DNA from: an uncultured Candidatus Saccharibacteria bacterium
GTDB taxonomy: Bacteria > Patescibacteriota > Saccharimonadia > CAILAD01 > JADZBC01
DNA length: 64,000 bases
Reading direction: 5' to 3'
Assembly: GCA_964600985.1 (NCBI GenBank)
Contig: CAZRJR010000001.1
Span: forward strand, 45,319 to 109,318
Under the pieces are notes generated by a model. It searched no databases. It was not told the origin of the DNA and saw only the letters and a program-made list of their open reading frames with translations. Shown piece after piece: positions 6,304 to 30,487 of this stretch (positions within the stretch are counted from its first letter, which is position 1; every line of letters begins with the position of its first letter). Position numbers and translations under genes: made by a program.

Positions 6304-6359
6304 GGAGCACCGTGCTATCTGATCACGCGGGCCTTCTTTTTGAATTTACACTGTAACTT

Positions 6360-6395
6360 AGACTCCCGTAAAGGAGTCTAGTCTTGGAGAGTGCC
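6360..6395. repeat. att-like repeat copy A (degenerate) of the tRNA-Lys 3'-flank element
   Basis: agactcccgtaaaggagtctagtcttggagagtgcc contains a perfect hairpin (agactcc-cgtaaa-ggagtct). It aligns to copies B and C with an internal deletion. Confidence 0.6.
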
Positions 6396-6535
6396 TGAAA
6401 GCCATCTGGAGGCAATGGTAGAGTTAATCGCAAATGAGTTATACAAAACGGAGTAACGAAAGACCGCCCGGTGAAGGACGATCTTGTCGTCCGCACCGAG
6501 CGGTGGAGTAACCAGGTAACTCCTGGCGAGCATCG

Positions 6536-7048: not shown

Positions 7049-7180
7049 TGTAGCCCTCCTTGTTCAGGACGGGCTAGCCGTCATTGGTCATTCCTAACAC
7101 GAGAACTGGTAAATAGTAGTATAAATACATGAAAAAGTCAATGCATTTAAGCCCAAGCAAAAAGTAGTATTTAACTTATT

Positions 7181-7226
7181 AGACTCCCACAAAGGGGTCT
7201 TCAAGCATAAGGTCTATGGAGGGCCA
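7181..7226. repeat. att-like repeat copy B (46 bp)
   Basis: agactcccacaaaggggtcttcaagcataaggtctatggagggcca has 2 mismatches to copy C at 7998..8043. The final tggagggcca duplicates the reverse-complement 3' end of tRNA-Lys (acceptor + discriminator + CCA). Confidence 0.8.
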
Positions 7227-7257
7227 TCGTAGTGCCAGTAGCAACTGCTATAAGGAG

Positions 7258-7974
7258 CTAAGCAGCTGCGGCTAAAGTCACGCTACTAATGTCCCGCTCG
7301 AGAATAGCCTTACGATCAGAGCCAACATCTAAGCCGTAGGCGTTATAAAAAAATGCTTCTGCGTAATCTTCATTAGGCGCCTTACTGCCATATTTTGTTA
7401 CTGCAGTCTCGGACGATAGGGAAACGAAACCAACTCCCTCTGTACCGTATGCTCGTGCTTCTAACATATGACCCATTTCGTGCACGATAGTAATCTCTCC
7501 ATAGCTTAGGTCTGGGCTAACTTTTGAGGTCCAGTCGCCAGGATTAAGAAAGCCCATTTCGACGAGCAGGGCTTCTACATCGCCCACACTCATTGCGGCT
7601 TTTGATGCATCCATAATTATTGCGTTTTCATCTGCTAATGCCTCGCCGCCTGTATCAATTGCTCCATCAGCAAAGTAAATCTTAAGTCCAGGAAATGCTG
7701 CTTCAAGCTGACCACCGAATTGATCTTGCAGCCGATCTAGTGCCGCCTTAGCAGCAGAGGCAAGTGCTTCCATCTGCTCTATGTTGCCAAGCCCTATGAC
7801 CTCGATACCTCCCACGGAGGCCATGGCGTGCTGCTCTGACCCAAATTGTTGCAATATCGTTTCTATTCGGCTAGACTCCATCTCCTTTTCTTGAGGTATC
7901 ATCGCCTTTAACTCATCAGCCAGCTTTTGTGGCTTATCCGTAGCTTCCTCGGGGTTGTTCGAGAGGGTTTCCAT
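7258..7974 (-). CDS. HExxH zinc-metallopeptidase-like protein
   Basis: VHEMGHMLEARAYG carries an HExxH motif. The ORF track extends to 8061, but that start would overlap repeat copy C and the tRNA-Lys 3' end, so the internal Met at 7974 (METLSNN...) is preferred. Confidence 0.55.
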   Translation of the reverse strand: METLSNNPEEATDKPQKLADELKAMIPQEKEMESSRIETILQQFGSEQHAMASVGGIEVIGLGNIEQMEALASAAKAALDRLQDQFGGQLEAAFPGLKIYFADGAIDTGGEALADENAIIMDASKAAMSVGDVEALLVEMGFLNPGDWTSKVSPDLSYGEITIVHEMGHMLEARAYGTEGVGFVSLSSETAVTKYGSKAPNEDYAEAFFYNAYGLDVGSDRKAILERDISSVTLAAAA

Positions 7975-7997
7975 GGACTCATCATACCAACCAAAAA

Positions 7998-8043
7998 AGA
8001 CTCCCGCAAAGGGGTCTTCAATCATAAGGTCTATGGAGGGCCA
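7998..8043. repeat. att-like repeat copy C: tRNA-Lys 3' end plus downstream terminator hairpin (46 bp)
   Basis: agactcccgcaaaggggtcttcaatcataaggtctatggagggcca overlaps the last ~10 nt of tRNA-Lys. On the minus-strand transcript the hairpin is followed by a T6 tract. Confidence 0.8.
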
Positions 8044-8110
8044 GGTGGGATTCGAACCCACGACATGCTGCTTAAGAGGCAGCCGCTCTAACCAACTGAG
8101 CTACTGGCCC
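8034..8110 (-). tRNA. tRNA-Lys (anticodon CTT), CCA encoded
   Basis: The reverse complement reads GGGCCAGTAGCTCAGTTGGTTAGAGCGGCTGCCTCTTAAGCAGCATGTCGTGGGTTCGAATCCCACCTGGCCCTCCA. It folds as a cloverleaf with anticodon loop CTCTTAA and T-loop GTTCGAATC. Confidence 0.85.
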
Positions 8111-16360: not shown

Positions 16361-17722
16361 CTACGGTAGTGCGTAAGTATTACGAATGCGGTGTAGCGCA
16401 AAGATATTACCCAGTGACTGATCGCTACCCGGCACGGTGCTAACCGCAGTGCTAAAGCCAGCTTGCTGGGCTGCGGTAATCGACACCGTATTGTATGAGC
16501 CATACGGGTAGGCAAGTGTAGTAATGCTCAGTCCAAGCTCTTGTTCGAGGCGCTGTTTCGAAGTGGTAATTTGATATACTTGATCGCCGGCGCTGAGCCC
16601 GGCGAGCGCCAGGTGGTCTATCGTGTGGGCACCAATCTCGATTAGTTCGCTGGCCACTAGGCCGCGCACCTCGTCCCAATTCATGTATGAGTCTCCGCAG
16701 GCCAAGCCGGGTGTGCGCTCTATGCCAATGCAGTACTTACTCTTCTCGCCACCGATAATAAGGTAGTAGGTGGCGCGCATTTGGTACTTTTGCAGGATGC
16801 TGAGCGCGCGCAGTTGGTCGCTATAACCATCGTCAAATGTTATCACTAATGGCTTGGGCGGCAGGGTGCAGGTTTTACGTAAGCCGCATGCTACCTGGGC
16901 CATGGTAATGGTGGTGTAACCACGCTTTTGTATAATCTGGAGTTGAGACTCGAAGTCGGTCGGCGTTTTATGATACATAACGATCGGGATAAACGTAGTG
17001 TCATGCACAGGTGCAGCAGCTTGGGCGGCTCCGGCATGCTTTGCTTGCTTGGCTTTTGCCTCAGCGAGCTCTGCAATTTTCTGATCCACGAAGGCATTGT
17101 CGGCGCCTAGTTTGCTTTGGAGTGCAGTAAGTCGCCATATAGCCTCGACCGGTTGAGCTGTAGCGAAGAGCCAATTAATGTGGTCAAGTTCATCGCTGGC
17201 GTTATAAAGCCCAGCAATAATAATGCCGTGTGCTACCTGTTCATCGGCAATGCTATGCTCAGTTAGGCTTGCCTGCTTGTAGTCCTCATAGAGGGTACTC
17301 ACGGCACTAGTGGTTTGTGCAGTACCGGGCTGAAGCACGAAAAAGTTGTGGTGCCAGCGGTGTAATCCAAATGCAATAAGCGCTGTAAGACTCGTAGCTA
17401 ATACAATGCCCCTAAAAACTGCAGTGCTAAAATATTTGCGAGGCTCCTTAGTAGATAATTGTAGAGTAGTCTCTGGTTCGGTCTGAGGTATAACGTGCTC
17501 TATGGGTTCGCCCGAGCGCACGCTTTGGGCTTCCGCCAGCTCAACTGGTGGAGTAGTAGTGATCTCTTGAGTATTCGTGAGATCTGCTTGGACCAACTCC
17601 TGGGTGTTAGGATTAACCTCTGATGGTATAGCCTCGATTTCTAAACGAGGTTTTGCGCGGTATACGGCCTTTTTGCGCGCTTTGGTTTTGCGTGATGAAT
17701 GAGTTCTTTTCGATTTTGCCAT
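16361..17722 (-). CDS. polysaccharide deacetylase (NodB-type) with basic N-terminus and TM anchor
   Basis: NodB motif 1 is TFDDGYSDQ and there is a His motif IGAHTIDH. The N-terminus is KR-rich and a TM helix (VFRGIVLATSLTALIAFGL) follows. Confidence 0.8.
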   Translation of the reverse strand: MAKSKRTHSSRKTKARKKAVYRAKPRLEIEAIPSEVNPNTQELVQADLTNTQEITTTPPVELAEAQSVRSGEPIEHVIPQTEPETTLQLSTKEPRKYFSTAVFRGIVLATSLTALIAFGLHRWHHNFFVLQPGTAQTTSAVSTLYEDYKQASLTEHSIADEQVAHGIIIAGLYNASDELDHINWLFATAQPVEAIWRLTALQSKLGADNAFVDQKIAELAEAKAKQAKHAGAAQAAAPVHDTTFIPIVMYHKTPTDFESQLQIIQKRGYTTITMAQVACGLRKTCTLPPKPLVITFDDGYSDQLRALSILQKYQMRATYYLIIGGEKSKYCIGIERTPGLACGDSYMNWDEVRGLVASELIEIGAHTIDHLALAGLSAGDQVYQITTSKQRLEQELGLSITTLAYPYGSYNTVSITAAQQAGFSTAVSTVPGSDQSLGNIFALHRIRNTYALP

Positions 17723-17791
17723 AGCCAGGGGTTAATGCATGTAACTTATATAGTTTAGCAAACTATTGCCCGGGCGCGTAGGCTACAGACG

Positions 17792-18694
17792 TTATTGCGG
17801 CTTGCCGTATATATAGCCAAAGCTTGTGGCTGGCACCCAACGCTGGCTGACTCGGTTCCAGCCAGCAAAGTTCATTTCGCTAATGAGCACGCTATTGCCT
17901 TCTATACGCTCCACGTAGGCGACGTGACCGTACCAGCCAGCCGGTGTCCAGGCAATTGCACCTGGCACAGGGATATTGCCTGTTAGCCAACCTTCGGCCT
18001 TGGCGTGCGCCATCCAGTCGCGGGCATTGCCCCAGCGGGCTCCGGTAGGTCGTCGGCTAGCTACGTAGTAGGTGCATTGGCCGTAGGCGTAGCCACCGGT
18101 TGCGTAGTATTGAAGTTGCGCCGGTGGTGATGATTTGGAACGAAATGCAGGTAGAGCGGCTGTATCCACTGTGGTTGTAGTAGTGCTGGTTGGCTCGGAC
18201 TTGGTTGGTATGTCCTCCGGTTTGGTTTCGGCCGAGGTTCTGGCGGCATCTTCCTTGGCCTGAGTTGGGCTTGAGTTAGTTGCTAGTTTGGATGATTCAG
18301 GAGGGTTAGCTTTGGCCGGTTCCTGCTCACCACCTACCATAGCTACAATGCCTGTGGGTACCGTGGCAACTTCTTGCCCTACATTTGCAACGGCGCTAGC
18401 CATGGCTAAGTCTCGCGCTACCACGTGACTCTGAGCTTGCTCCAGTACGGCAACTACCCGGGCGTTAAAGCTGTTGCTGGCCGCATTGGCGCGCTGGCTG
18501 AATTGAGTGGCGGTAGCAATCACTTCCTTGCCAAACATGGGCAAGCCCCGTTCGCCATAGTTATAAACTAAGCTGCTTGCTCGTAATACTATAGCACTGG
18601 CGCTCGCTACTAGTGCTAATAGTAAGGCAGACTTGAGCGCATGCTTGCGCTGGCGAGCCTTGGCGCGCGCTGCATCCCTCTGCTGTAAGTGCAT
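17792..18694 (-). CDS. CHAP-domain peptidoglycan hydrolase (membrane-anchored)
   Basis: The C-terminus carries CHAP motifs (GQCTYYVASRR ... GHVAYVE) and an N-terminal TM helix is present. ORF 49736..50908 is a paralog. Confidence 0.8.
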   Translation of the reverse strand: MHLQQRDAARAKARQRKHALKSALLLALVASASAIVLRASSLVYNYGERGLPMFGKEVIATATQFSQRANAASNSFNARVVAVLEQAQSHVVARDLAMASAVANVGQEVATVPTGIVAMVGGEQEPAKANPPESSKLATNSSPTQAKEDAARTSAETKPEDIPTKSEPTSTTTTTVDTAALPAFRSKSSPPAQLQYYATGGYAYGQCTYYVASRRPTGARWGNARDWMAHAKAEGWLTGNIPVPGAIAWTPAGWYGHVAYVERIEGNSVLISEMNFAGWNRVSQRWVPATSFGYIYGKPQ

Positions 18695-18784
18695 GGTATA
18701 AGTATTGATAGCGTTTTCTCCGATAGATCATCGTACCTTATCTGGCAAGCTGATTTCAAGCATAACTACGAACAAAATTCGGTA

Positions 18785-20482
18785 CTATTTTGTGGTGTTT
18801 GGGGTGGTATTCTCGAGCTTACCACTGAGGTCAATGAATTTGTACGGTTGCCACATGTTGTCTATGTAGTGGTTGTCGGGCAGCAGTGGCAAGTTGGTGC
18901 CAAAGTAGGTATTAAACACAGTGCGGAAGGAATTAACCGGTGATATAGTTGGGTAAATAACGCCGGATGGAGCGCCGGGCAAGTAGTAGGCGTTGAGTAT
19001 GCCGGTCTTTTGTTGCAATTCGCTACTAGTAGCTTTGTTCCAGTTAAAGCCCTTAGTGTTGCCATCAAAGCGCTTGGGGTATGGACCTTCGTCAGCCTGC
19101 AGGATAATAATTGGCTGCTTGTTGGGGTTACTGGTTAGCTGGTTAATGAGCTGAGTGACTTGATCATTGGTATACTTCATTTGTTCTATGTAGAGTTGCT
19201 TCTCACTCATAGCTTTACCACGCTGAGCTGGCGCGCCGTTGGCATTGAATACATACGGTGGGTGCGGTAGTAATATGTGAGCAAAGACCATCTTGGGGCC
19301 AGGCGACGGAGCGACGGTACTACGCAGCTGGGCAAGTTCGTATAGGGCACTTTGGGCATGCAGGCTCTGTGCTGGAATGGTGCGTGTGCTAAAAAGTGTA
19401 ACACCACCAAGTTTGTACGTGGCGCCCATATTAACTTGCAAGATACTGCGGCGTAGCAGAATCGACTGGAAGTCGGACACACTAAAGTTATGTCCGAACA
19501 ATGTGACGCCCCGAAACGAGTGTAGGCTAGTGTTGGCACCTGGATTAGAGCGGGTAGGGTCCCACCACGAACCGAGTTGTGTGTAGCTATAGCCTTGCGA
19601 CTTGGCGAAACTCGCCGCACCGTTAGCAAGGATCATACGCTGTGTGAGTTTGGTGGAACTAACGCTGACCTGATCTTTGGCGCTAAGCGTGGGTAAGTAT
19701 TGACCATTGAGTGACGATGCAACCGACTGCACAGTGTACGGGTAGTTAGAGTGGGCGTCGGTAAGTTGAAAACCTTTGGAACTCAGAAAGTTTATAAAGT
19801 CATCGTTGCTAAATCCGTATTGGGTCCGTAGCGTTTCTTGGCTGGCATAACGATCAAGGATAATGTAGTACATATCTGGCTTCTTAGCTGGGGCAGTGCT
19901 GGCCTTGGCACTGGCAAGCGGCGAGCTAATAGGCAGTGCATCGATGCGATAGTTCATTATATGGTAGTGGGCGATTGTGTAACACGTGTAGGCAAGGCTG
20001 GCGCCCATGAACACCGCCACCAGCCTTACCGGGGGCTGCCAGCTTTTAGTCGAACGGCGCATGACGTTGGTAAGCAACACAGCAAATACAATGCAGTACA
20101 GTATGATTATTCTGCTGGTGTGGAAGACTGGATTGCCCAAACCAATGGCCGAGAGCACATCGGTAATGTTGTCCTGGAGTGGTATAAAGGTAAGGATTAT
20201 GAGGAGTAGAGCGCTCGCAAGCAAACTAGCTTTGTACACGTGTCGTAGCAACAACCAGCTAAGGCCGAATAGAAGCACTGCTAGACCAAGGTTACATAAA
20301 AGTGGAACCGCCAGCTGACTAAAGTGCAGTTGACTTTGGTTTACGGCGAACATGGAGACAACGGGCCAAGCCGCGCAGAATATGAGCAAGGCAGCAGCTG
20401 GTAGGTTGCGTAGCAATGCAGATTTAGATAGTTTGCGCGGAGCAGTAAGTGGTTTTTTACTCGGCGGCTGTCGGTGTTTCAC
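18785..20482 (-). CDS. membrane protein with extracellular sulfatase-like (alkaline-phosphatase superfamily, LtaS/MdoB-like) domain
   Basis: 565 aa with about 5 N-terminal TM helices followed by a ~370-aa soluble domain (MYYIILDRYASQETL...). The architecture resembles LtaS/phosphoglycerol transferases. Family assigned with moderate uncertainty. Confidence 0.45.
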   Translation of the reverse strand: MKHRQPPSKKPLTAPRKLSKSALLRNLPAAALLIFCAAWPVVSMFAVNQSQLHFSQLAVPLLCNLGLAVLLFGLSWLLLRHVYKASLLASALLLIILTFIPLQDNITDVLSAIGLGNPVFHTSRIIILYCIVFAVLLTNVMRRSTKSWQPPVRLVAVFMGASLAYTCYTIAHYHIMNYRIDALPISSPLASAKASTAPAKKPDMYYIILDRYASQETLRTQYGFSNDDFINFLSSKGFQLTDAHSNYPYTVQSVASSLNGQYLPTLSAKDQVSVSSTKLTQRMILANGAASFAKSQGYSYTQLGSWWDPTRSNPGANTSLHSFRGVTLFGHNFSVSDFQSILLRRSILQVNMGATYKLGGVTLFSTRTIPAQSLHAQSALYELAQLRSTVAPSPGPKMVFAHILLPHPPYVFNANGAPAQRGKAMSEKQLYIEQMKYTNDQVTQLINQLTSNPNKQPIIILQADEGPYPKRFDGNTKGFNWNKATSSELQQKTGILNAYYLPGAPSGVIYPTISPVNSFRTVFNTYFGTNLPLLPDNHYIDNMWQPYKFIDLSGKLENTTPNTTK

Positions 20483-21891
20483 GCTCGACTCTTCATGAGG
20501 TACATAGTGCGCTTAGAGCCTTTGATCGGCGTGGTCTCAATTATAGTAAAGAAGCGCTTAAACGCAGTTTCAAAGCCTGCTGCATCATAGTCGCCAAACA
20601 CATCCTCGCGACTCATGAGTAAGCGCTTAACCATACTATCTTGTTTGGGTACAAATTCGATAATAAGGTATTTACCAAGGCTGCGAAAGTATTCTGCTAC
20701 GTGCCCAAAGGGTACGTTATTACCAATGGTCAGGTGGTGGATCAGTGCAAGCGCCATGAGAGTATCGGCTGGTCCACGCTGGGCAAGCGAACTACGCTCT
20801 TGGCCCGCCCAGCCAATGCCCGAGCTAGGGTTGGTAAGGTCTACGAGCAGGGGTAGGAGCTTGGTGTTGCTTTCTGACTTGGCATGGAGATAGTTGTGCT
20901 CTATGGCGATAGGGTCGTCGTCAAAGCAGAGCGTGGTTCGATTCCGGGCACTTGCTAGGCGACTAAACACACCGCTATTGCCGCCCAAGTCCCATACTTG
21001 CTTAGCGCGAGTGCGCTCCAGGTAGCGTTCAACAATTGCCTTTTTGTCATTAAAGCTGGCTTTGGTGTAGCTGTGCTTGTCGTAGTAGTCCCCCCAAGTA
21101 GTTTGCTCGCCCTTAGGCTGCCATTTAAGTGAGTTTATGGCGCTCTCTAGACTATGAATGAGGGCGAGCATGCCCTGACGAGACAACTTGGCGGCACTTG
21201 GCTTGTTGTTCGGCGTATTGTTGCCGGCATGCTTAGCCTGCGAGCGAGCATGCAGGTGAATGTGCAGGGCTGTACTTGGCTTAATCCGACTACTGGCTCC
21301 AAGTAGCTTACTGGCTAAATCAAGCGGGACTCCGTCGATATACACGCGCAGGAGTTGGCTGAGCCGAACATCACGCTGTGCCATAAGGGCAAGTGGTGCC
21401 AGGAAGTGCTGGCAGAATTGCTTATATGCCACCCAGGGTTTGCCCTCTTGGTAGGCTTCGAATGACAGCGTGTCAATCATGGTCGGTAGGCCATCGATGA
21501 ACTGAATGTTGTAAGCACTGGCATCCTTGAGGCTCATGCCATGTTCGAGTGCAACTTTTTGTATGTTCAAGGTTGCAAGTGCGGCGTCCTTAAGCTGGCT
21601 AAAGCTCCATTCGTATGGGTAGGAAATAAACTCAACCAAGCTGGGTTTAATGATTTTGTAGACTACCCCACTGTCCTGGGGTGAGGCTGGCTGCTGGTTT
21701 GCATCCATTTCTTTGTGAGCAACGAGGAGCTTGGCTTCGGTGAGCTTATGGTAGAGTCCCGAACTCATCAGGAGTTCATAATCTGCTCTGCACACTTGAT
21801 TGATTTGCCGGTACACCGCGCCGTTATGACTAAACACAAACCCACTTGGGTCGCGAAACGAAGCTGGGTTGGTGTGGATTGCTTCGGTCAT
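20479..21891 (-). CDS. two-domain protein with C-terminal class I SAM-dependent methyltransferase fold
   Basis: 470 aa. Motif I is VWDLGGNSGVFS in the C-terminal half. The N-terminal ~280 aa (SFRDPSGFVF...) is of unknown function. Confidence 0.55.
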   Translation of the reverse strand: MTEAIHTNPASFRDPSGFVFSHNGAVYRQINQVCRADYELLMSSGLYHKLTEAKLLVAHKEMDANQQPASPQDSGVVYKIIKPSLVEFISYPYEWSFSQLKDAALATLNIQKVALEHGMSLKDASAYNIQFIDGLPTMIDTLSFEAYQEGKPWVAYKQFCQHFLAPLALMAQRDVRLSQLLRVYIDGVPLDLASKLLGASSRIKPSTALHIHLHARSQAKHAGNNTPNNKPSAAKLSRQGMLALIHSLESAINSLKWQPKGEQTTWGDYYDKHSYTKASFNDKKAIVERYLERTRAKQVWDLGGNSGVFSRLASARNRTTLCFDDDPIAIEHNYLHAKSESNTKLLPLLVDLTNPSSGIGWAGQERSSLAQRGPADTLMALALIHHLTIGNNVPFGHVAEYFRSLGKYLIIEFVPKQDSMVKRLLMSREDVFGDYDAAGFETAFKRFFTIIETTPIKGSKRTMYLMKSRA

Positions 21892-21893
21892 AC

Positions 21894-22169
21894 CTACGAG
21901 CTTTTTTGGACTGATTGCTTAGTTTCTTTAGTGGGTGATTCTGGGCCGGCTTTAGCTTTTTTGTGAAAGATTCCGCCGAAGAATGCACTGATTTGCTTCC
22001 AGAAAACTTTTACAAGGTACGATACGGTGGCCAAGGCGGCGATTACGATCTGTACAATACTCGATCCCATACCCGGGTCGAGGTAAGCGTGGGCTGGTTT
22101 TGGCACAACTTGCCACAGGATTAAACTTAGTATAAAAAGGTGCGACGCAAAGACTAAAATTCGTTTCAT
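21894..22169 (-). CDS. small hypothetical membrane protein
   Basis: MKRILVFASHLFILSLILWQV... is the internal Met of ORF 21894..22205. It has two hydrophobic segments and abuts the gene downstream. Confidence 0.35.
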   Translation of the reverse strand: MKRILVFASHLFILSLILWQVVPKPAHAYLDPGMGSSIVQIVIAALATVSYLVKVFWKQISAFFGGIFHKKAKAGPESPTKETKQSVQKSS

Positions 22170-22291
22170 AGTGATTCCATTTAGGTTTTTATAATTATGG
22201 ACCAAGTCGCGATTGACTTACGAGGAGGGAGAAATAGCAAATTCCTTCTTACTATTGTAGACCACTCCAGCTGAAGATCAACTTAACTGGG

Positions 22292-23689
22292 CTACGAAGG
22301 GGGCGTATAGCGGGGGCCATCGCCAACCGAGAAGATCCGCGGACTATCGCCATCGGGGAGATTGATGAGAGTTACATGGCGCCCATTCTCATACCCGCCA
22401 GCGTGGAGAAGTGCGGGGTGATAGATGGCGCCACTCTCAAAGTCATATTCGCCATCCGGCGTGTTTGGTGGGGGGCAGTTACCTACTCGAATAGCGAATT
22501 TAGATCCAGAAACGGCTTCTTGAGTTAAGTTTGAGCCGTAGAGGCCAACTGGACCATTGACGCCGCGATAGCACCACATCCACACATCGTCTCTAAGTAG
22601 GCTGAGTGTTGCAGCTACGCTCCCTACATTATTGCCGTCGTTCCAGCCCGCACCGTAGCCAAATATCTCATCGATTTGCCAGGCGGAACCATTCCACCAC
22701 ACATGGTTATGGCGTGTATCGTGCGACAGTGAGGGAATGGTTGAACTATCGTTAGCCCCTGAGCCTGTCGCTATGAAGTGAAAGTGCCCATCCTTATCTA
22801 CACACCTGCCACCCGCCGTGGCTCCACCGATACTAACTCCACCTACTTTAATCGCGGCTGCGCCAACGCCAGCTACACCATCGAGCGTAGTACGGTAGGT
22901 AAATGGTGCGGTAACTGCTTCACCCAATACATTCTCCCAGGTACTACCCTTGTCGTGGCTGCGCACATAAAAGTATTCGGACATGGTGGAAGGTGTGCTG
23001 GTCGACATACGCCATACATATACACAGTGCAATGTGTCTTGGAGATCTACGAACGAATGAAGTAAATAGGCGCGGTCAGGAATATCGTCAGTGTCGGCTG
23101 CGTTATCCACGCCTAGATTTGGCGTAGTCATAATTTCGCCCGTGCCCACACAGGGCTGCCAAGTATCTCCAGGATTTGGTCCGAGTCGCCACATAGTCTG
23201 GTCGCGACCAACCGGGTTGGCAGTATCTGACTGATCCTGGTGCCATATGAGCGTGCCATCCGAGAACACCTCGTAAGCCTGGTAGGTAGTATAATTAGCG
23301 CCCGAGGTAAGCCAGTTAGCTGGGTTTGGTGCTTGGGCCCAGCTGGATATGTTATGCGGGCTCGTTGATTTTATGTACTTCATGGGTTGCTGGTGGCCGT
23401 TTCCGGATATGTGTATGTAGCCCTGGGCATCTACTGCTAAAGCTGCCGCGAAGTGTGAGTCCGAAACTTCAATTGGCCCAAAGGTAGCCGAGGCGGTTCC
23501 TGGCGTAGCTACATTGGTTACGTCTACGGTTGTCCACGAGGTACTGGTGCGCGGCCGTTGACAAACCAATAGCCGCCAGTCAACAGTAGTAACCAGGCAG
23601 TACTCGTAGTTGGCGGTGCGCCAAACGGTCGGCCAAGCCGAGGCAGTACCGTTGCGAGCGTTGCCGAGGGCTGTTGCGTAGCCAGCCAT
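22292..23689 (-). CDS. BNR/Asp-box repeat beta-propeller protein (sialidase-like glycosidase fold)
   Basis: 465 aa. SHDKGSTW is a canonical Asp-box (SxDxGxTW). The Trp/Gly/Asp-rich repetitive composition fits a propeller. It starts 5 nt after the stop of the fibre-like gene upstream. Confidence 0.6.
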   Translation of the reverse strand: MAGYATALGNARNGTASAWPTVWRTANYEYCLVTTVDWRLLVCQRPRTSTSWTTVDVTNVATPGTASATFGPIEVSDSHFAAALAVDAQGYIHISGNGHQQPMKYIKSTSPHNISSWAQAPNPANWLTSGANYTTYQAYEVFSDGTLIWHQDQSDTANPVGRDQTMWRLGPNPGDTWQPCVGTGEIMTTPNLGVDNAADTDDIPDRAYLLHSFVDLQDTLHCVYVWRMSTSTPSTMSEYFYVRSHDKGSTWENVLGEAVTAPFTYRTTLDGVAGVGAAAIKVGGVSIGGATAGGRCVDKDGHFHFIATGSGANDSSTIPSLSHDTRHNHVWWNGSAWQIDEIFGYGAGWNDGNNVGSVAATLSLLRDDVWMWCYRGVNGPVGLYGSNLTQEAVSGSKFAIRVGNCPPPNTPDGEYDFESGAIYHPALLHAGGYENGRHVTLINLPDGDSPRIFSVGDGPRYTPPS

Positions 23690-23694
23690 GTGGC

Positions 23695-25086
23695 CTACGC
23701 CCTATGAAGCTTTACTACTGCCGAATTGAGTACCATGTCTATCTGTGCGCCAGTCGTAGAGAAGGTGGTATAGGCACGAATAGTGTGAGTTCCCGATTGA
23801 TCAATGCTCGATGTTGCCGAGCCGACCGATGTAGTACCGGTGACCGCCCATCCAGCAGTTGAACCGTTGGAGAGGTGGAAGATGCCCGAACTTGATTGTG
23901 TGCTAAGGCTCGAACCGATTACTATTTCGATAGCAGCACGCCATTTGCGTCGATCGGCATTGGCGGCTACACTCGTCATGGTATCAGTCATAACAAGCGT
24001 GTCGGCAATGTAGAGTCGAAAACCAAGATCTATGGCAGAACCCGAATCATTGTTAAATGTACCGGCTAAGGTGAGTTCAATTACATCACCAGTTTGTAGC
24101 TTTCCACTCGCGACTGAGTATGAGTACAGGTCACCATTAGAGGTGACAGTGCTTGGTGTGGCGCTGGAATCGAGTACATGGGTACCGCTCGAATCTACAT
24201 ACGACTTGGTGGTAACGTCGTTTGCATCCACGGGTGTAGCGGCCGATAGTATGGTGAAACGACCAGTTGCCGAGGAGCTCATAAACGCCGAGCCGTTAGC
24301 TGTGGTTATGCCTAGTCCTGGTGTTCCAAATGCGTTACCAAGCCCTGCGTAGTAGCCTGTGGGTACATCGGTAGGGTAGGCTAGTACCGAGCCTGCTCCA
24401 ACTGTAACCACTCCATTACCACTGGGGTCTACAGTGAGGTTACCCGTCATGGTGCCGCCAGACTTTTGAAGACTCGACGTGAACTCAGACTCATTCACAC
24501 TAATGGTAGATATACCAGTAACTGGTGCAGATATGTCTATGCCGGCACCCGCTACGAGCTCTGGCGCACCGAGCTGCGAGTTTACATATTGCTTGGTGGT
24601 GGCGTCGGTGGCATTAACTGGTTCGGGTACGGTAACTGTGCCGGTAAAGGTGGGGCTTGCTAGGGGGGCTTTGCTGGCTAGATCACTGGTAAGGTTGGCT
24701 ATCTTGGACTGAGCAATCGCCGCACTACTGTTTACGTTGGCATCCACAATTGCATTGGCTGCTATTTGCGGACTGTCCGCAGTGCCGGCTAAGTCGCCTG
24801 CCAATTGAATCTTGCCCTTCGAGGAGGTAGTGGCATCGGCCACTCCCGAGGAAACAAGCCCATCGGCGTAGGCTTTGGTAACGGCCTGATTGGCACTGGT
24901 GGGTGTAGGTACAGTTACACTACCGGTAAAAGTAGGGTTGGCAAGCGGCGCATAGCTAGCCAGCGTACCACCCGACTTAAGCGTACCGTCGCTATTATGC
25001 TCTACGCCAAGGTACTCATTAAGGACTTCTCCCCAAGTGCCTTTGTCGCCTCCTGGCTGCGGTAACCGTGCCAACTCCACCTCCAT
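23695..25086 (-). CDS. phage-tail-fibre-like surface protein (paralog 2)
   Basis: 463 aa. Its N-terminus (LARLPQPGGDKGTWGEVLNEYLGVEHNSDGTLKSGGTLASYAP) matches ORF 2218..4128. It has three tail-fibre repeats of the form (A/S)NPTFTG.VTVP.P...A.TK.Y(A/V)(D/N), with Ser/Thr/Gly-rich beta-strand regions after them. Confidence 0.75.
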   Translation of the reverse strand: MEVELARLPQPGGDKGTWGEVLNEYLGVEHNSDGTLKSGGTLASYAPLANPTFTGSVTVPTPTSANQAVTKAYADGLVSSGVADATTSSKGKIQLAGDLAGTADSPQIAANAIVDANVNSSAAIAQSKIANLTSDLASKAPLASPTFTGTVTVPEPVNATDATTKQYVNSQLGAPELVAGAGIDISAPVTGISTISVNESEFTSSLQKSGGTMTGNLTVDPSGNGVVTVGAGSVLAYPTDVPTGYYAGLGNAFGTPGLGITTANGSAFMSSSATGRFTILSAATPVDANDVTTKSYVDSSGTHVLDSSATPSTVTSNGDLYSYSVASGKLQTGDVIELTLAGTFNNDSGSAIDLGFRLYIADTLVMTDTMTSVAANADRRKWRAAIEIVIGSSLSTQSSSGIFHLSNGSTAGWAVTGTTSVGSATSSIDQSGTHTIRAYTTFSTTGAQIDMVLNSAVVKLHRA

Positions 25087-25210
25087 TTACCAAACGTGTA
25101 TTACGCTTATGATATCATGTTGCTTTCTACTAAGGAAGCCTGGCATTAACCTGTTACTTTTGTACTGTTTTTGTTATGCTTAAGCTAATTCAAGTAATAC
25201 GCAGGAGTAG

Positions 25211-25555
25211 GTGGAGAGAATGAAGCGGGTAGGGCAGATTCTAGGAATATTGGTTGCTAGTTTGGTGCTATGCTCCTGGTGTGCAGTGCCAACTGCAGCG
25301 CGGGCCGACAATAGCTATTCGTGTGGCACCTATAGCGCGGGCGATTACCAAGCTGGCTCGTGCGATGCGGGTGTTGTGGACCAGGTGACCCAGCCAATTA
25401 CGAACTTTATAAACAACACACTACCGGCAACTGGTACCACCATTCCGGTATTTATAGGTGCAGCCGTAGTCACACTCGGCGGGCTTGGGGTGTATCTGGT
25501 TCTCAAAAGGCGTCGTAAGAATTCTGAGCAGGAAAACGTTTCAATTGAGGGTTAG
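25211..25555 (+). CDS. small LPXTG cell-wall-anchored surface protein (sortase substrate)
   Basis: 114 aa. It has an N-terminal signal peptide and the C-terminal sorting signal LPATG, followed by a hydrophobic segment and the KRRRK tail. Confidence 0.7.
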   Translation: MERMKRVGQILGILVASLVLCSWCAVPTAARADNSYSCGTYSAGDYQAGSCDAGVVDQVTQPITNFINNTLPATGTTIPVFIGAAVVTLGGLGVYLVLKRRRKNSEQENVSIEG

Positions 25556-25616
25556 CAACTTAGAGGGTGGGTCATATGGGGTTGAGCCGAAACAGCTTAC
25601 TGTGTGAGATGGTGGC

Positions 25617-26145
25617 CTAGTTATGGATATTAGTAAAGCCTAGTTTGTTCTCTAGATAGACAACTGTTGGGAGATTAAGGAGATGGAACTTCACGCCAAA
25701 AGACGATAGTTTATATCCAATCTCTGGGTTAACTCCACGATCCACAGAGACTAGGTTAAAAGATTTGTCCTCGTACTTCTTCAAAAAAGTCTCGATACTA
25801 TCAAATAGTACTAACTCAACATGCTCTAGACCTTCTTTAACCTCTCTTCCAGGATTTGGGGCTGGTAATTCAATCGTATCTATTCTCCATTTCTCATGGT
25901 AAATGGGAGAATCCAGTCGAAATGTAGCAATGGGTCTGCCGTTAATTATTAACCTCTCCCAGCAACTCAGCTACAAGGGCCAGATCGGCCTTCTTCTGTT
26001 CATAGTTCTTCATAGAATGTGTCCTGTAGCATATATGATCCATCTGAACAAAGTCGGCCATATCAAAGCCTTCGGCCTCTATTTCGGCGGTAATATCCTT
26101 CAGGAATACTTTGTAATCACCAACAATCTTTTTGAGTTCATTCAT
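25617..26145 (-). pseudogene. VOC/YecM-like protein interrupted by a +1 frameshift near 25942
   Basis: The 67-aa ORF 25942..26145 ends with a TAA stop. The adjacent +1 frame continues without a start codon for ~108 aa (GRPIATFRLDSPIYHEKWRIDTIELPAPN...FTNIHN) down to a TAG at ~25617, so together the two pieces make a ~175-aa protein. Confidence 0.5.
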
Positions 26146-26333
26146 ACTTTAATCCTAACACAAAAGACTCCTCTCAAAGTCTTTTGTTGGCAATTACTAC
26201 ATTGGTGATCCTAATGACTGAAATCTCGAACTTCAAGGACAGTTTGAGGATCTTAACTGCGAAACCCTAGAAACGACAAAGCCGACTGACGCGCGAGGCG
26301 CCAATCGGCAATGCCAGTTCGGTACTCCGATGT

Positions 26334-26825
26334 TCAGTACGACCAGTAGTCGCCGTAGTCGGAGAACGGGTCGTCGTAGTCGTAGCGACGGTGGCCGACG
26401 TCGACGAGGCTGAAGGCGAAGTCGCCTTCGTCATCAGACTCCATCTCGCGAGCGGAGGCCTCATCGTCTCGACACCACCAGCAGAGCTTCTCGCCACCAC
26501 AGGTGATGTACCAGGTCTCGGCGTCCTCATCGAACACCAGGTGATGCAGGCGCTCGTCCTCGAGGACCTGCATCCGGAAGAGGCGCCGACCGAGCTCGTC
26601 GTGGGTGCGGTAGTCGTCGACGTGGATGCCGAGATCGAAACGCACGGTGACCAGGGCCTTCTTGCCGGGGGTGAACGAGACACCGGGGCCGTTGAACGGG
26701 CCGTAGGGTCCTGGGATCGGCAGCACATCGACGAGTGTGCGGTCGAGGATCTGGAGGGTGACGTTGACCTGGCGCTCAGCGGCGAGCAGCAGGTCTTTCG
26801 AGGTGCCCTCGTACTCGATGGACAT
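26334..26825 (-). CDS. hypothetical acidic protein on high-GC insert
   Basis: It starts at the internal Met (MSIEYEG...) of ORF 26334..26915. Over a sampled 60 nt the minus frame shows the canonical high-GC codon pattern (GC3 ~85% > GC1 > GC2 ~40%), whereas the antisense ORF 26391..26894 does not. Two Cys pairs are present (CGG...CWWC). Confidence 0.45.
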   Translation of the reverse strand: MSIEYEGTSKDLLLAAERQVNVTLQILDRTLVDVLPIPGPYGPFNGPGVSFTPGKKALVTVRFDLGIHVDDYRTHDELGRRLFRMQVLEDERLHHLVFDEDAETWYITCGGEKLCWWCRDDEASAREMESDDEGDFAFSLVDVGHRRYDYDDPFSDYGDYWSY

Positions 26826-26946
26826 GTTTTCCAGGAGGCACATGGCCGTCCCTTTCATGATCGTCTTGGATGGGTGCGAACTGACAGAACTTAACGTTCG
26901 TCGTAATAATAGCATAAAAATAATAAATTGTCAAGACTGGTGATCC

Positions 26947-26965
26947 CGCGGGGAATACTAGATGT
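26947..26965. repeat. 19-bp direct duplicate of the tRNA-Glu 3' end (att-like)
   Basis: tggtgatcccgcggggaat matches 27103..27121 exactly (reverse complement: T-arm 3' half + acceptor + CCA of tRNA-Glu). Confidence 0.9.
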
Positions 26966-27102
26966 ATAACCATCGTCATTCGTTAAGCCCAAAAGCAAGC
27001 TTTCGGCTTTGTCTCACTCCTCGATTATCGAACCCCTTCGGTGCTCAGTCGCCAACGCAACTACCATACAAAAAGCCCGAGCATAGGCTCAGGCACTTTG
27101 TA

Positions 27103-27177
27103 TGGTGATCCCGCGGGGAATCGAACCCCGATTGCCAGGATGAAAACCTGGTGTCCTAACCGTTAGACGACGGGACC
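27103..27177 (-). tRNA. tRNA-Glu (anticodon TTC), CCA encoded
   Basis: The reverse complement reads GGTCCCGTCGTCTAACGGTTAGGACACCAGGTTTTCATCCTGGCAATCGGGGTTCGATTCCCCGCGGGATCACCA. It is closely similar in architecture to E. coli tRNA-Glu, and the anticodon loop is TTTTCAT. Confidence 0.85.
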
Positions 27178-27624
27178 TCGTCCAAGCATGAACTTTAGCT
27201 TCTCGTCTCGCAGTATGCAAGCCTGTCAGCTGCCGTCATGCTTCTCCACTCGATTTTGTAAACAGCTTCTAGCGTCGCTTCGGTTCACAAAATCGGTTAA
27301 GGTCTAAAACAGACAAATTAACCATGTAATAGTAGCATTTTAGTACCTAAGTTTCAAGGTGGCAGGCGCCCATAAAACGAAAGAACCCCACGGATTCTAT
27401 CCGTAGGGTATGTATGGTGTCCGCCTGGGGCGAGACCCGGGTGTGAACGATGTGTTCTGCCCGGGTCTCGCCCGACCCGCTCTCCGTGGTGTGGAGAACG
27501 TGGGGCTCCCCCTGTCCGGTGGAGGGAGGACCGCTTGGCGTGCGCCAAGCCGGGGGAGCCCCGAAGGTGGCCGGTCGCAACTGGGGCGGGCAGCCAGCGC
27601 GACCGGCCGATCTTGGCGGCTTGT

Positions 27625-28107
27625 TCAGCCGCCGTCGACCGGTTGGCCGACGCTCACCTCATTGGTCGAGGTGTCCACCACCTTGCACTTCACACCCTTG
27701 GTGTACGGGGTGGCGTGCTTGGCGTCCGGCGGCAGGATCTGGGCCTGTCGGCACGTTGTGACGACCGTGTGGCCATCCGTGGTCTTCACCACCTTCCCGT
27801 GGGTAACCATCACGTGGTCGCATCTGTTGCCATCCGCGAAGGTCGCGTCGAGGTTCAGGCTGTGCGCCTTCATGTAGGCGCGGTAGCCAGCCTTGATGGC
27901 ATCCTGCTGCCCCTGGCACTTGCCGGCGTTGTAGCCGTGGTTGAAGCCATCCTCGTAGCGGTGGGTGTGATACTGGGAGGCCCAGTAACACATTCCGGCG
28001 ATGATCGCCAAGCTGATCACAAGGATCGGCACGGCGGGGATGTAGGGGCGACTGCCAGTCACCCCATCGGTGCCCTTGCGGGCGGTGTCTGGTGTGGGGG
28101 AGGCCAT
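27625..28107 (-). CDS. hypothetical membrane-anchored/secreted protein on high-GC insert
   Basis: 160 aa with an N-terminal TM/signal segment (IPAVPILVISLAIIAGMCYWA) and an extracytoplasmic domain with 4 Cys. Its composition is more protein-like than the low-complexity Ala/Gly/Arg-rich antisense ORFs. Confidence 0.4.
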   Translation of the reverse strand: MASPTPDTARKGTDGVTGSRPYIPAVPILVISLAIIAGMCYWASQYHTHRYEDGFNHGYNAGKCQGQQDAIKAGYRAYMKAHSLNLDATFADGNRCDHVMVTHGKVVKTTDGHTVVTTCRQAQILPPDAKHATPYTKGVKCKVVDTSTNEVSVGQPVDGG

Positions 28108-29101
28108 GCCGCCCCTCCTTTCTGAGGTGCGTTCGTGATCCGGTTGATCACGAAAAGTGAAGCTATAATATCAGAAAGATAGCATTAAGTCAATACTCTT
28201 ATGGGGCTTAGAACAGAGAAACCCGCTTGAGTCTCTCGGATGTCCTTTGTGGGACGGTAGAGAAACCCAGGCGGGTGGTTGGGTGTGGTGCGTCGACTAG
28301 CTCTGGATCACCTGCCAGCCCTGCAGATGGCGGTAGAACATCACTGCGATCATGAAGAGCACAACCACAATGACGACACACAGGAGTTTGCACAGGAGCT
28401 CCCGATCTCCCGCCTTGACTGCCGTGTCCTGACGATCGTGCAGGTATGGCTGGGTGTAGGGCGCGTAGGGCCAGTATTTACGCATATCACCTTCTTTCAG
28501 AGGGTTGGCGCTGCCATCATGGCGATAACAGCGATGATGAACAGGATGGCGCAAGCACGCAACAGCGGTAGTAGAAGACATCGCCGACGTGGCCAGGTAA
28601 CGCTGGGTTGAACGGCTTGGCCAGGCCCTACGTAATGCACCCGCGGATGATCCGTGGTGTAGTGGCGCTGCATCACAGGGTCACGCTTCGTGCGCAAACT
28701 GCTAGCAAGAACCCCACCAGGATCACCAGGACCAGAAGGCCCCGACTGCCGATCGTCATCGCGCCGTCGCCATGACGATGATCAATCCCGCGATGATGAG
28801 TAGCAGCAAGACCCGACGAAGTGACCTTGAAGTGTTAGACGAACTCGTCTGACACTCGTTCTGCCACCATGGCTTCGGAATGCCGTACCTCGGTTCGCCA
28901 AGGCGACCGTCTTCACCATCACTTCCTTCCACTACATTACCTCCTGATTGTCGGTATGTTTTTTGGTTATTTCCAGGTGCTAAACAGCGTGGCTCAACTA
29001 TATTCTTGCAAAAAGGAAAAATCAATATATTTTCTCGATTGGTGTTTGTGCCGGATTAGCCTATAATAAAGCGTAAGAACTAAGATTAACCTGGGCGGCG
29101 G

Positions 29102-29920
29102 ATGAGTAATAGGGCTACATTGGTAGTGGCGAACTGGAAGATGCACCTGCGGGTGACGGAGAGCTTGGCGCTTGTGGAGCGCCTAGGTAAGCAAGTGGAG
29201 ACTAAGGCTAACACCGAGGTGGTGTTGTGTCCGCCAGTGAGTGCTGCAGGTACGATAAAGCTTTATATGGAGGCGCACGAGCTAGAATTCAGCCTGGGCG
29301 TACAGAATGTAAACGAGCGTGACGAAGGCGCATATACCGGCGAAGTATCTGCTGCTATGGTGCGGGGTTTAGCCAAATACGCCATTTGTGGTCATTCCGA
29401 GCGGCGTATATACAGTCGTGAAACAAGTAAACAGGTCGCAGCCAAAGTAGCGGCCTGTGTGCGCAATGGTATTCGACCAATTCTGTGTGTGGGCGAGAAT
29501 TTAACCGAGCGCGAGGCACGGCACGGTAAACGACGCGTGTTGGACCAGCTACGGGTGGGGTTGAGTCTAGTGCCGCGGAGTGAGGCTGGTGGGCTAGTAG
29601 TAGCTTACGAACCAGTCTGGGCCATTAGCACCACGAAGCATACTCGACACGCCAACCCTGACGACATTGCGCCTATGCTACAAGCTATTCGCCACGAGCT
29701 CGAGGAGATCTATGGCGAGGAGGTAGGCGCCCAAATTCGAGTGCTCTACGGGGGGAGTGTGGACAGCCATAATGCCGGTGCATACCTGGGTCTCGATGAT
29801 TGCCATGGGTTACTAGTAGGAAATGCAAGCCTAAATTGGGCAGAGTTTAGCGCTATAGTACGCACGGCCCAAGATCGCGACCGTGGACAGCCTCGACACC
29901 AAGCAGTTGGCGCCGTATAA
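29102..29920 (+). CDS. tpiA: triosephosphate isomerase
   Basis: Contains VANWKMH, CGHSERR and AYEPVWAI motifs. The C-terminal ~20 aa may be over-extended. Confidence 0.85.
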   Translation: MSNRATLVVANWKMHLRVTESLALVERLGKQVETKANTEVVLCPPVSAAGTIKLYMEAHELEFSLGVQNVNERDEGAYTGEVSAAMVRGLAKYAICGHSERRIYSRETSKQVAAKVAACVRNGIRPILCVGENLTEREARHGKRRVLDQLRVGLSLVPRSEAGGLVVAYEPVWAISTTKHTRHANPDDIAPMLQAIRHELEEIYGEEVGAQIRVLYGGSVDSHNAGAYLGLDDCHGLLVGNASLNWAEFSAIVRTAQDRDRGQPRHQAVGAV

Positions 29921-29965
29921 TACGGGGCAATAAACTAAGATTAGTAGTATCAGCAGGAGAAACAC

Positions 29966-30487
29966 ATGACCACACTAAGTTATGGCGAAAAAGCCCCCGA
30001 GGTAGTGAATGTAGTAATCGAAATCCAGCGTGGCGGACGCAATAAGTATGAGTACGACAAAGCAAGCGGACAGTTGGTGCTCGACCGAGTCAATGCTACT
30101 ATGCTGGGCTACCCGGCCGACTACGGCTATGTTCCTGGCACGCTCTGCGAAGATGGTGACCCAATTGATGCGCTGGTGGTGATCGACGAGTCTGTACCGC
30201 ATGGCGTAGTGGTGCCATGTCGGCCTGTAGGTGTGCTCTACATGGTGGATGGTGGCGAGAGCGACGAAAAGCTCATATGCGTGGCCGCCGATGACATTAC
30301 CAAGGACCATGTGCAATCGGTTGAGGACTTGGACGCCAACTTTAAACAGATTGTAGAGCACTACTATGCTCACTATAAGGACTGGAAGAAGGACTGGAAG
30401 GGTGCAGAAGTCAGCTTTAACGGTTGGGGTGACGCGAGTGAGGCTAGAAAGGCCATTGCTGATTCGATAGAGCGCGCTAAAGTTTAG
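29966..30487 (+). CDS. ppa: inorganic pyrophosphatase
   Basis: 173 aa. DGDPIDALV and the Asp-rich metal-binding motifs match family I PPase. Confidence 0.9.
   Translation: MTTLSYGEKAPEVVNVVIEIQRGGRNKYEYDKASGQLVLDRVNATMLGYPADYGYVPGTLCEDGDPIDALVVIDESVPHGVVVPCRPVGVLYMVDGGESDEKLICVAADDITKDHVQSVEDLDANFKQIVEHYYAHYKDWKKDWKGAEVSFNGWGDASEARKAIADSIERAKV

Follow-up and report, generated by a model that had tools for sequence, protein, structure and literature searches.

The gene for tRNA-Glu (anticodon UUC, CCA encoded; ARAGORN, Rfam tRNA 62.5 bits) and its surroundings were analysed in a stretch of 64,000 nt, referred to here as the window, from an uncultured Candidatus Saccharibacteria bacterium (GenBank assembly GCA_964600985.1, contig CAZRJR010000001.1, forward-strand positions 45,319 to 109,318). 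The gene lies at 27103..27177 on the minus strand; all positions given are those of the window, and features of the tRNA-Glu region, of yecM and of the tRNA-Lys array are on the minus strand, i.e. the strand of the tRNA, unless stated otherwise. The final 19 nt of tRNA-Glu, from A58 of the T-loop to the CCA (27103..27121), were found again by a repeat search at 26938..26956, downstream of the intact gene, on the same strand, in direct orientation and with 19/19 identity. Read on the tRNA strand, this displaced copy starts with the letters ATT of the T-loop and ends with CCA. The 19-mer TGGTGATCCCGCGGGGAAT occurred exactly twice in the window, even when up to three mismatches were tolerated, and gave no match in 100 shuffles. 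An earlier note on this DNA, made without database searches, had already described the duplication as exact and not due to chance, and this was borne out; its distal copy, however, had been placed at 26947..26965 and had to be moved nine bases to the left, and the ~137 bp that it had counted between the copies became a gap of 146 bp (26957..27102), with 165 nt from start to start. In form, the 19-mer repeat is what site-specific recombination in the T-loop classically leaves behind. The note had called it an attachment-site (att) type repeat, which fits the form of a scar left by a T-loop-type integrase, although no integrase was found among the scanned genes of the window (likely genes of at least 150 aa; open reading frames (ORFs) overlapping likely genes and the large ORF 58345..61743 lay outside the scan). 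The tRNA-Arg and tRNA-Ala genes of the window showed no duplicated ends. A reading of the displaced copy as the primer-binding site of a retroelement (its complement is a 19-mer starting with TGG) was rejected, as there was no reverse transcriptase and any att duplicate would have this orientation.

From 29025 down to 26160, four minus-strand transcription units were delineated, each with a near-consensus sigma-70-like promoter and an intrinsic terminator, and all on the strand of the tRNA. Compared with a mean GC content of 49.7% in the window, 63.3% was measured at 26277..26853, 64.4% at 27357..28168 and 55-62% at 28200..28900, in agreement with the earlier description of both flanks of tRNA-Glu as GC-rich relative to a backbone of ~50%. 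The AT-rich stretches separating the GC-rich blocks are the promoters and 5′ untranslated regions (UTRs). The GC contents at the first, second and third codon positions were 0.66, 0.38 and 0.86 in ORF1 (26334..26825), the gene of the left-hand block, and 0.58, 0.48 and 0.86 in ORF2 (27625..28107), in the right-hand block; these minus-strand patterns back the coding frames that had been proposed for both blocks. Third-position GC (GC3) ranged from 0.77 to 0.86 across ORF1, ORF2, a 62-aa ORF upstream of ORF2 and an ORF at 6536..7048 (ORF 6536), while backbone genes had values of 0.44-0.59. Three ORFs of more than 100 aa in the 64 kb showed the GC3-rich pattern (ORF 6536, ORF1 and ORF2), each of them within ~1.1 kb of tRNA-Glu or tRNA-Lys; one 53-aa ORF (53505..53666) was also flagged in the scan.

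A parallel array was found at tRNA-Lys (array 6358..8110; gene 8034..8110). Here, a 46-nt direct repeat with 96% identity (7998..8043 and 7181..7226) comprises the last 10 nt of the tRNA and its terminator, running 36 nt past the 3′ end, and a partial third copy lies at 6358..6379. The copies bound two modules. An ORF of 238 aa (7258..7974) encodes an acidic protein with the motif HEMGH and has a backbone-like overall GC content of 48%, and a promoter precedes the GC3-rich (0.77) orphan ORF 6536, which encodes 170 aa. The view that tRNA genes attract compositionally foreign DNA in this genome is thereby supported.

The ORF1 module comprises 724 bp (26214..26937) directly distal to the displaced copy, with a proximal edge that is sharp at the 19-mer. 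A gap of 3 nt separates the CCA of the displaced copy from the -35 box of promoter P1 (26906..26934; TTGACA-17-TATTAT with extended TG), which is followed by an AT-rich 5′ UTR and drives ORF1 (26334..26843). The ORF1 protein is cytoplasmic and acidic (pI 4.4, GC3 0.86) and has 169 aa, or 163 aa from 26825; the true start is probably 26843, for which the 169-aa product is present in a public protein collection, or else 26825. The longer frame 26334..26915 had been described as GC-rich only after its first ~90 nt; its start is indeed AT-rich, but this stretch is non-coding and consists of the sigma-70-like promoter and the 5′ UTR. ORF1 is followed by a GC-rich intrinsic terminator (26281..26309). 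Hints of the distal edge of the module are this terminator, the drop in GC at ~26277, where the left-hand block ends, and the 9-mer TGGTGATCC with TCGAAC 14 nt later. The module is the sole part of the locus that looks like a strain-specific insertion, and ORF1 was found only in this strain, both in the public protein collection and in Logan contigs. The protein belongs to a rare family, which is marked by LVFD..W..CGG...CWWC(R/K)D and a tail of acidic residues. A HMMER pass over 1.84 billion representatives yielded three genuine distant homologues (P0130, P0132 and P0133; 31-32% identity), which have the motif LVFD..W..CGG...C.WC(R/K)D and the acidic tail in common; WD40-repeat matches from the same pass were discarded as repeat artefacts. 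The contigs encoding the homologues (L113, 6001..6537; L114, 1365..2042; L112, 5001..5450) have GC contents of 50-54%, and two of the three genes are GC3-rich islands (0.86 and 0.76) behind TTGACA-17-TATAAT promoters. More GC-rich islands and an IS1595 transposase were observed near the homologue on L113. AlphaFold models were too poor for a fold search, with a pLDDT of 34 for ORF1 and 50 for the ORF2 family, and sequence searches with the cassette proteins against Pfam, PHROGs, PADLOC, NCBIfam and PDB gave nothing meaningful.

A third, degenerate att copy had been suggested just left of the left-hand block. The 9-mer on which this was based is present, at 26203..26211 and not at 26205..26213, and occurs four times in the window, each time inside 26203..28728 (2.5 kb; chance expectation 0.40), three times in the orientation of the tRNA and once inverted. 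Together with 14 nt and TCGAAC, it forms a tentative candidate for a decayed third tRNA 3′ fragment (26203..26231), which is followed by a terminator-like hairpin (26161..26188) just before yecM. Alignment of this region with the tRNA plus trailer, however, gave a score of 18, compared with 16.5 +/- 2.3 for shuffles (not significant), so that a third att copy is possible but not established. The inverted fourth copy of the 9-mer (28720..28728) lies inside a 28-aa ORF with a transmembrane (TM) segment and is possibly due to chance, hydrophobic residues being encoded there. A further att-like copy downstream of ORF2 (27411..27430) was rejected, as the ACCATACA match was not kept in the relatives L082 or L084.

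The DNA between tRNA-Glu and the displaced copy is a 146-nt trailer (26957..27102) comprising the intrinsic terminator of tRNA-Glu (27075..27094), two hairpins, GGGGTTCGAT, the motif GATAATC and a variable part. GGGGTTCGAT (27027..27036) is identical to the 5′ strand of the T-stem plus the T-loop of the tRNA, and the trailer can thus be read as a tRNA 3′ fragment of 27 nt whose T-loop is interrupted by ~70 nt. A scan of JGI metagenomes with the 19-mer yielded 10 loci. In the distant genome of L092 (1..230), a terminator and a spacer separate the 3′ end of the tRNA from a second copy (18/19), again at a spacing of exactly 165 nt; a terminator and ordinary genes come next, with neither a GC-rich block nor ORF1. 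The same layout of tRNA, trailer and copy was seen at a spacing of 188 nt in L003 (6846..7160), a metagenome-assembled genome (MAG) of Candidatus Saccharimonas, whose second copy (ATTCTCCTTGG...) corresponds to its own tRNA variant and not to that of the window. L095 has a decayed copy at a spacing of 159 nt, and L099 (2500..2900) holds a tandem array of trailer units, each with a terminator, with no intact tRNA within 560 nt. In homologous trailers, two hairpins keep their positions although the sequences of their stems are unrelated; the motif GTTCGATAATC is shared as well, and another part varies. The displaced copy is perfect or near-perfect despite the divergence of the trailer. Since other Saccharibacteria have the same trailer architecture, it is conserved or recurrent and not the stump of one lost element. 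The earlier idea that an integrated element was largely gone did not hold, as its supposed remainder is the trailer that is conserved behind tRNA-Glu in L092, L003 and L095. Trailer and copy form either a miniature integrase-less att-flanked element, similar to a cis-mobilisable element (CIME), or a retained secondary attachment site; that the trailer is a functional RNA is less likely. Its folding gave z-scores of -0.2 in the window and -0.6 in L092 (range -0.2 to -4.5, weak in two of four sequences), no hidden tRNA, tmRNA, T-box, SRP RNA or 6S RNA was detected in it by Rfam or by ARAGORN at relaxed settings, and RNAalifold on a MAFFT alignment of trailers was uninformative.

The right-hand block lies 5′ of tRNA-Glu. 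The promoter of the tRNA, P2 (27329..27357; TTGAAA-17-TACTAT with TG), is kept in relatives, in which the tRNA begins ~20 nt after it, and in the window is separated from the gene by a window-specific insert of 137 nt (27178..27314). This insert contains a 13-nt inverted repeat (27251-63 / 27283-95), is absent in L082 and L084-L088, and makes the 5′ leader of tRNA-Glu unusually long, that of relatives being 2-20 nt. The ORF2 unit starts with promoter P3 (28165..28193; TTGACT-17-TATTAT, TG), which is followed by ORF2 itself (27625..28107), a GC-rich structured 3′ region with five hairpins (27410..27625; GC to 77%, no Rfam family) and a terminator that is invariant in relatives (27385..27409). 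ORF2 encodes 160 aa at a GC3 of 0.86; one predicted N-terminal TM helix serves as anchor, and the extracytoplasmic domain has four conserved Cys residues, consistent with the earlier description of a membrane-anchored, secreted protein. The first hairpin of the 3′ region encloses the stop codon of ORF2, and the non-coding 3′ GC content is 70-77% at 27450..27650. For the ~230 nt of 3′ region and terminator (27385..27625), a minimum free energy of -162 kcal/mol was obtained (z = -9.7); compensatory changes were seen in 8 of 82 pairs, with only three sequences compared, and conservation was above that of the ORF2 coding sequence. The region may be an sRNA (small RNA) derived from the 3′ UTR, a stability element or a recombination anchor. 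Upstream of ORF2 lie a gene for a 62-aa tail-anchored membrane protein (28297..28485; GC3 0.78, kept in relatives) with a conserved terminator region (~28205..28290), and three small TM ORFs (28497..28932) of 58 aa (28756..28932, GTG start), 28 aa (28673..28759) and 58 aa (28497..28673). These four small TM ORFs bear out the earlier suspicion of further membrane ORFs in this block. The three tiny ORFs and the 62-aa protein are served by promoter P4 (28997..29025; TTGATT-17-TATAGT), which is divergent from the gene for triose-phosphate isomerase (TPI; 29102..29920, plus strand).

Homologues of ORF2 (P0003, 94% identity; P0007, 50%) were found only at the syntenic locus of relatives, on contigs from several unrelated runs that all contained TPI, small TM ORFs, the 62-aa ORF, ORF2 and tRNA-Glu. 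The right-hand block is syntenic in L082-L088, where ORF2 has a GC3 of 0.86-0.87 and TPI one of 0.60-0.64. As a mosaic test, a three-way alignment of the window, L082 and L084 was made. Between the window and L082, identity was 66-70% in TPI and, at the nucleotide level, 25-46% in the small ORFs, but 93-98% in the ORF2 unit (~28100..27423); between L082 and L084, the corresponding values were 77-80%, 84-88% and 51-69%. As the ORF2 unit reaches 93-98% where TPI shows 66-70%, the unit must have moved between lineages. The exchanged tract coincides with the GC-rich block, and its brackets, i.e. the upstream terminator on one side and the downstream terminator, tRNA promoter and tRNA on the other, are invariant in all three genomes. 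Most simply, the exchange occurred by homologous recombination on these conserved flanks. The small TM ORFs (28497..28950) appeared, in the comparison with L082 and L084, as a second, independently replaced sub-module of the block. Because the right-hand block lies 5′ of the tRNA, an att site at the 3′ end cannot have delivered it. It is also old, given that relatives with a TPI identity of 66-70% have it in the same gene order and just as rich in GC. The earlier note had taken the block for acquired foreign DNA and had itself named its presence with matching composition in relatives as an observation against this; the same block with matching composition was found in every relative recovered, and by that criterion it is no recent import.

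The continuity of the assembly across the locus was followed in Logan contigs. All of these short-read contigs break inside tRNA-Glu, which marks the tRNA as a repeat node of assembly graphs; such breaks are expected for a sequence common to co-occurring strains. Contigs from single runs nevertheless join each GC-rich block to the backbone genes on its far side. L001 corresponds exactly to 27141..30261 and carries part of the tRNA, ORF2, TPI and the gene for inorganic pyrophosphatase (PPase). L090 is 100% identical to 24904..27157, and L089, assembled from a different run, differs at a single position in 2,985 nt (99.97%); both extend from within the tRNA through the displaced copy, ORF1, yecM and an LPXTG gene into the start of the next gene. 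With the junctions thus reproduced by independent assemblies, the chimera that was to be checked for is very unlikely.

The locus is best explained, with a probability of about 0.5, as a tRNA-anchored hotspot of tiny self-promoted cassettes, in which an old att-type trailer, a strain-specific ORF1 module and resident modules exchanged by recombination are found side by side. The repeats, the anatomy of the modules, their composition and synteny, the mosaic identity and the array at tRNA-Lys are direct observations. The locus would be a variable chromosomal region made of very small self-contained transcription units, each of which starts with a sigma-70 promoter close to consensus, holds a single GC3-rich orphan gene or a small operon and ends with a terminator. 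The modules 5′ of tRNA-Glu (small TM proteins, 62-aa protein, and ORF2 with its 3′ region) would be long-term residents of the clade that are exchanged between lineages as whole GC-rich units, most likely by homologous recombination after DNA uptake, with the invariant terminators, promoters and tRNA as putative anchors. A recombinase might act in trans, and a separate high-GC gene pool might be the source of the cassettes. Their foreign-like composition is kept either by selection on composition or by continual resupply from an unsampled high-GC pool.

Several results weigh against this hotspot. The scan of likely genes in the window (150 aa or longer) turned up neither an integrase nor a resolvase, a transposase or any other recombinase, and the cassette ORFs likewise had no match to Phage_integrase, resolvase or transposase. 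The 19-mer and a 21-mer of tRNA-Lys were absent from IMG/VR, and no free element or attP was found. An empty site was not recovered in a close relative, no contig of which reaches this side of the tRNA. Contigs with YecM homologues were rejected as empty-site relatives, as they had no tRNA-Glu synteny, and an exact-protein look-up of the yecM fragment returned the same strain only. None of the three distant homologues of ORF1 lies near a tRNA, and the distal boundary of the ORF1 module depends on a 9-mer that was non-significant by alignment. The conserved trailer follows each genome's own tRNA, which a functional RNA or DNA element could explain without integration. Also, GC3 stays at 0.86 in ORF2 alleles that are 50% identical, which selection fits as well as gene flow.

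Some of these points belong to the most serious alternative, which we consider possible though doubtful, namely that native, old, GC3-rich genes shaped by selection lie next to a functional tRNA trailer, the repeat being part of a conserved structured element that is transcribed or evolves together with tRNA-Glu, and no recombination scar. Composition would then be held by selection, e.g. for expression from very strong promoters or for mRNA structure. The near-consensus promoters agree with this, as do the GC3 of 0.86 in ORF2 alleles of 50% protein identity and in distant ORF1 homologues from backbones of 53-54% GC, and the lack of a recombinase among the scanned genes. The trailers also point in this direction, with hairpins at the same positions in differing sequences, the GTTCGATAATC motif, and a displaced copy that tracks its own tRNA and is perfect or near-perfect where the trailer has diverged. 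The trailer, however, belongs to no Rfam family and folds no better than shuffles in the window (z -0.2) and in L092 (z -0.6), and the GC richness is not confined to codons but reaches the non-coding 3′ regions (70-77% at 27450..27650). The identity of 93-98% in the ORF2 module where TPI has 66-70% indicates mobility, ORF1 is an orphan seen in this strain only, and an analogous repeat with a different geometry exists at tRNA-Lys; these findings likewise count against native genes shaped by selection.

A recent import from a high-GC actinobacterial host, by elements that targeted the 3′ end of tRNA-Glu and have since been mostly deleted, is unlikely. Saccharibacteria are known epibionts of Actinobacteria, and the earlier guess of an episymbiont was reasonable, the organism being a Saccharibacterium; the overall composition and GC3 are actinobacteria-like, and an att-type repeat is present. 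While the composition would thus fit an actinobacterial or host origin, as the earlier note had proposed, homology does not. ORF1 and ORF2 had no actinobacterial homologue in the searches run, and neither these ORFs nor ORF 6536, which was searched in phage, plasmid and viral collections only, matched any entry of phage, plasmid or IMG/VR collections as DNA or as protein; no actinophage homologue of the three was found in these searches. The homologues of ORF1 occur in contexts of 50-54% GC. GC3-rich ORFs at other Saccharibacteria loci (L007 and L098) were discarded as unrelated proteins of GC-richer genomes. Furthermore, relatives with only 66-70% DNA identity in TPI have the right-hand block at the same place, 5′ of the tRNA, and just as rich in GC, which makes it old, the spacer is conserved in other genomes and is not a random stump, and the proposed delivery by integrative elements found no counterpart in an integrase among the scanned likely genes of the 64 kb. 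The last alternative, an assembly artefact that fused high-GC contigs from a co-occurring organism with the backbone through the repeated tRNA sequence, has the contig breaks inside tRNA-Glu in its favour but is scarcely credible in view of the single-run contigs that span from each block to backbone genes, the same synteny in relatives from other projects, and modules that all lie behind AT-rich promoters, between terminators and in one orientation.

Among known systems, islands in tRNA genes (tDNA islands), i.e. the tyrosine-integrase islands of the Islander database, are defined by their integrase and leave a regenerated tRNA and a displaced fragment as footprint (PMC4383910). The present locus resembles them in having an intact tRNA and a displaced 3′ fragment in direct orientation (19/19 for Glu; 46 nt, 96% for Lys), and in the compositionally atypical DNA adjoining it. 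At both tRNAs the block of identity starts at one of the canonical crossover sublocations, which are the anticodon loop, the T-loop and the 3′ end (T-loop to CCA for Glu, the '3′-end' for Lys); the T-loop was reportedly among the preferred crossover sublocations described by Williams in 2002. Unlike in tDNA islands, no integrase was found here among the scanned genes, the DNA from tRNA to fragment is a 146-bp non-coding trailer with the cargo, ORF1, beyond the fragment, and the modules are smaller than 1 kb with one gene each. CIMEs and decayed att-flanked islets of streptococcal integrative and conjugative elements (ICEs) are said to have been described by Pavlovic in 2004 and Bellanger in 2011. 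As in CIMEs, direct att copies flank short DNA without recombination genes (tRNA core, 146 bp, displaced core; also in L092, L003 and L095), and such an arrangement can persist as a secondary attachment site for the accretion of further elements. The element is, however, ~10 times smaller than described CIMEs, and its mobilisation in trans is only putative; we know of no cognate ICE or integrase for Saccharibacteria. By analogy, a CIME-like remnant would be the nearest formal counterpart of the unit of tRNA, trailer and copy.

The islands of Prochlorococcus that are seeded by tycheposons are adjacent to tRNAs, with older integrations pushed outward and partial tRNAs as remnants (bioRxiv 10.1101/2020.12.28.424599). 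A streamlined genome without classical mobile elements, a tRNA-adjacent island and partial tRNAs are shared features, but tycheposons are kilobases long and carry integrase and replication modules, none of which was found in the scanned genes of the window, and some of the variable DNA here lies 5′ of the tRNA. The single-gene modules in one orientation, at a fixed chromosomal site and swapped between lineages, are also reminiscent of integron cassettes. Unlike in integrons, where cassettes are promoterless and have attC at the 3′ end, there is no IntI, attI or attC, the modules have their own promoter and terminator, and they are delimited by fragments of tRNA or by conserved terminators; at their 3′ ends, ordinary terminators are the rule, the multi-hairpin region of ORF2 being absent from other modules. 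The locus behaves as a hotspot of tDNA integration and recombination, yet it cannot be filed in any described element family, because no integrase was found among the scanned genes of the window and each unit is a single gene with a promoter of its own.

Saccharibacteria have tiny genomes with few recognisable mobile elements and live as obligate epibionts on other bacteria, and how their accessory and surface genes are renewed is poorly understood. The locus suggests a concrete route, by which one-gene modules would be inserted and exchanged around tRNA genes and invariant promoter/terminator blocks. That a GC3 of ~0.86 persists in a genome of 50% GC is an anomaly open to testing. Capture of genes by the epibiont from its host is suggested by composition alone and unsupported by homology. 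A bolder proposal, which we consider rather unlikely, is that Saccharibacteria harbour undescribed mobile units, i.e. integrase-less single-gene cassettes of less than 1 kb that come with a consensus promoter and a terminator, lodge at tRNA-anchored sites, are swapped between distant lineages and stem from a high-GC replicon or pool. If this were true, the actinobacteria-like GC3 of ~0.86 in 50%-GC genomes would imply a separate high-GC replicon or gene pool, for example an extrachromosomal element not yet known or host-associated DNA that is taken up all the time, as a supply for the surface and accessory proteome of the epibiont, and the tRNA-Glu trailer and the structured 3′ region of ORF2 would be cis-acting sites of the cassette system. 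If the ORF1 module circularised, a 26214-26937 junction reading through GGATCACCA would be expected.

The neighbouring genes place the window on a Saccharibacteria (TM7) chromosome that has no close sequenced relative. Housekeeping genes of the window include those for TPI, inorganic pyrophosphatase, PGK, MetRS, AlaRS, MurB, UvrD, Obg and NusB. The closest matches of TPI in a one-genome-per-species set of GTDB were Saccharimonadota/Saccharibacteria MAGs, with only 47% identity; YecM homologues had ~60-70%, and some were named from Candidatus Saccharimonadia. The yecM gene (25617..26145) next to the hotspot is split by a frameshift near 25940, so that the N-terminal 67 aa form an ORF of their own and the C-terminal part continues in a different frame. 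The 67-aa call recurs in assemblies from two sequencing runs, and the split gene is probably a real pseudogene. On the tRNA-distal side, a cluster of cell-surface and cell-wall genes was observed (16361..25555), encoding a polysaccharide deacetylase, a CHAP peptidase, a sulfatase-like protein, a BNR protein, a fibre-like DUF5907 protein of 463 aa and a small LPXTG protein. A second protein of the DUF5907/pectate-lyase-like type is encoded at 2218..4128, and the surface genes of both regions are plausibly involved in interaction with the host.

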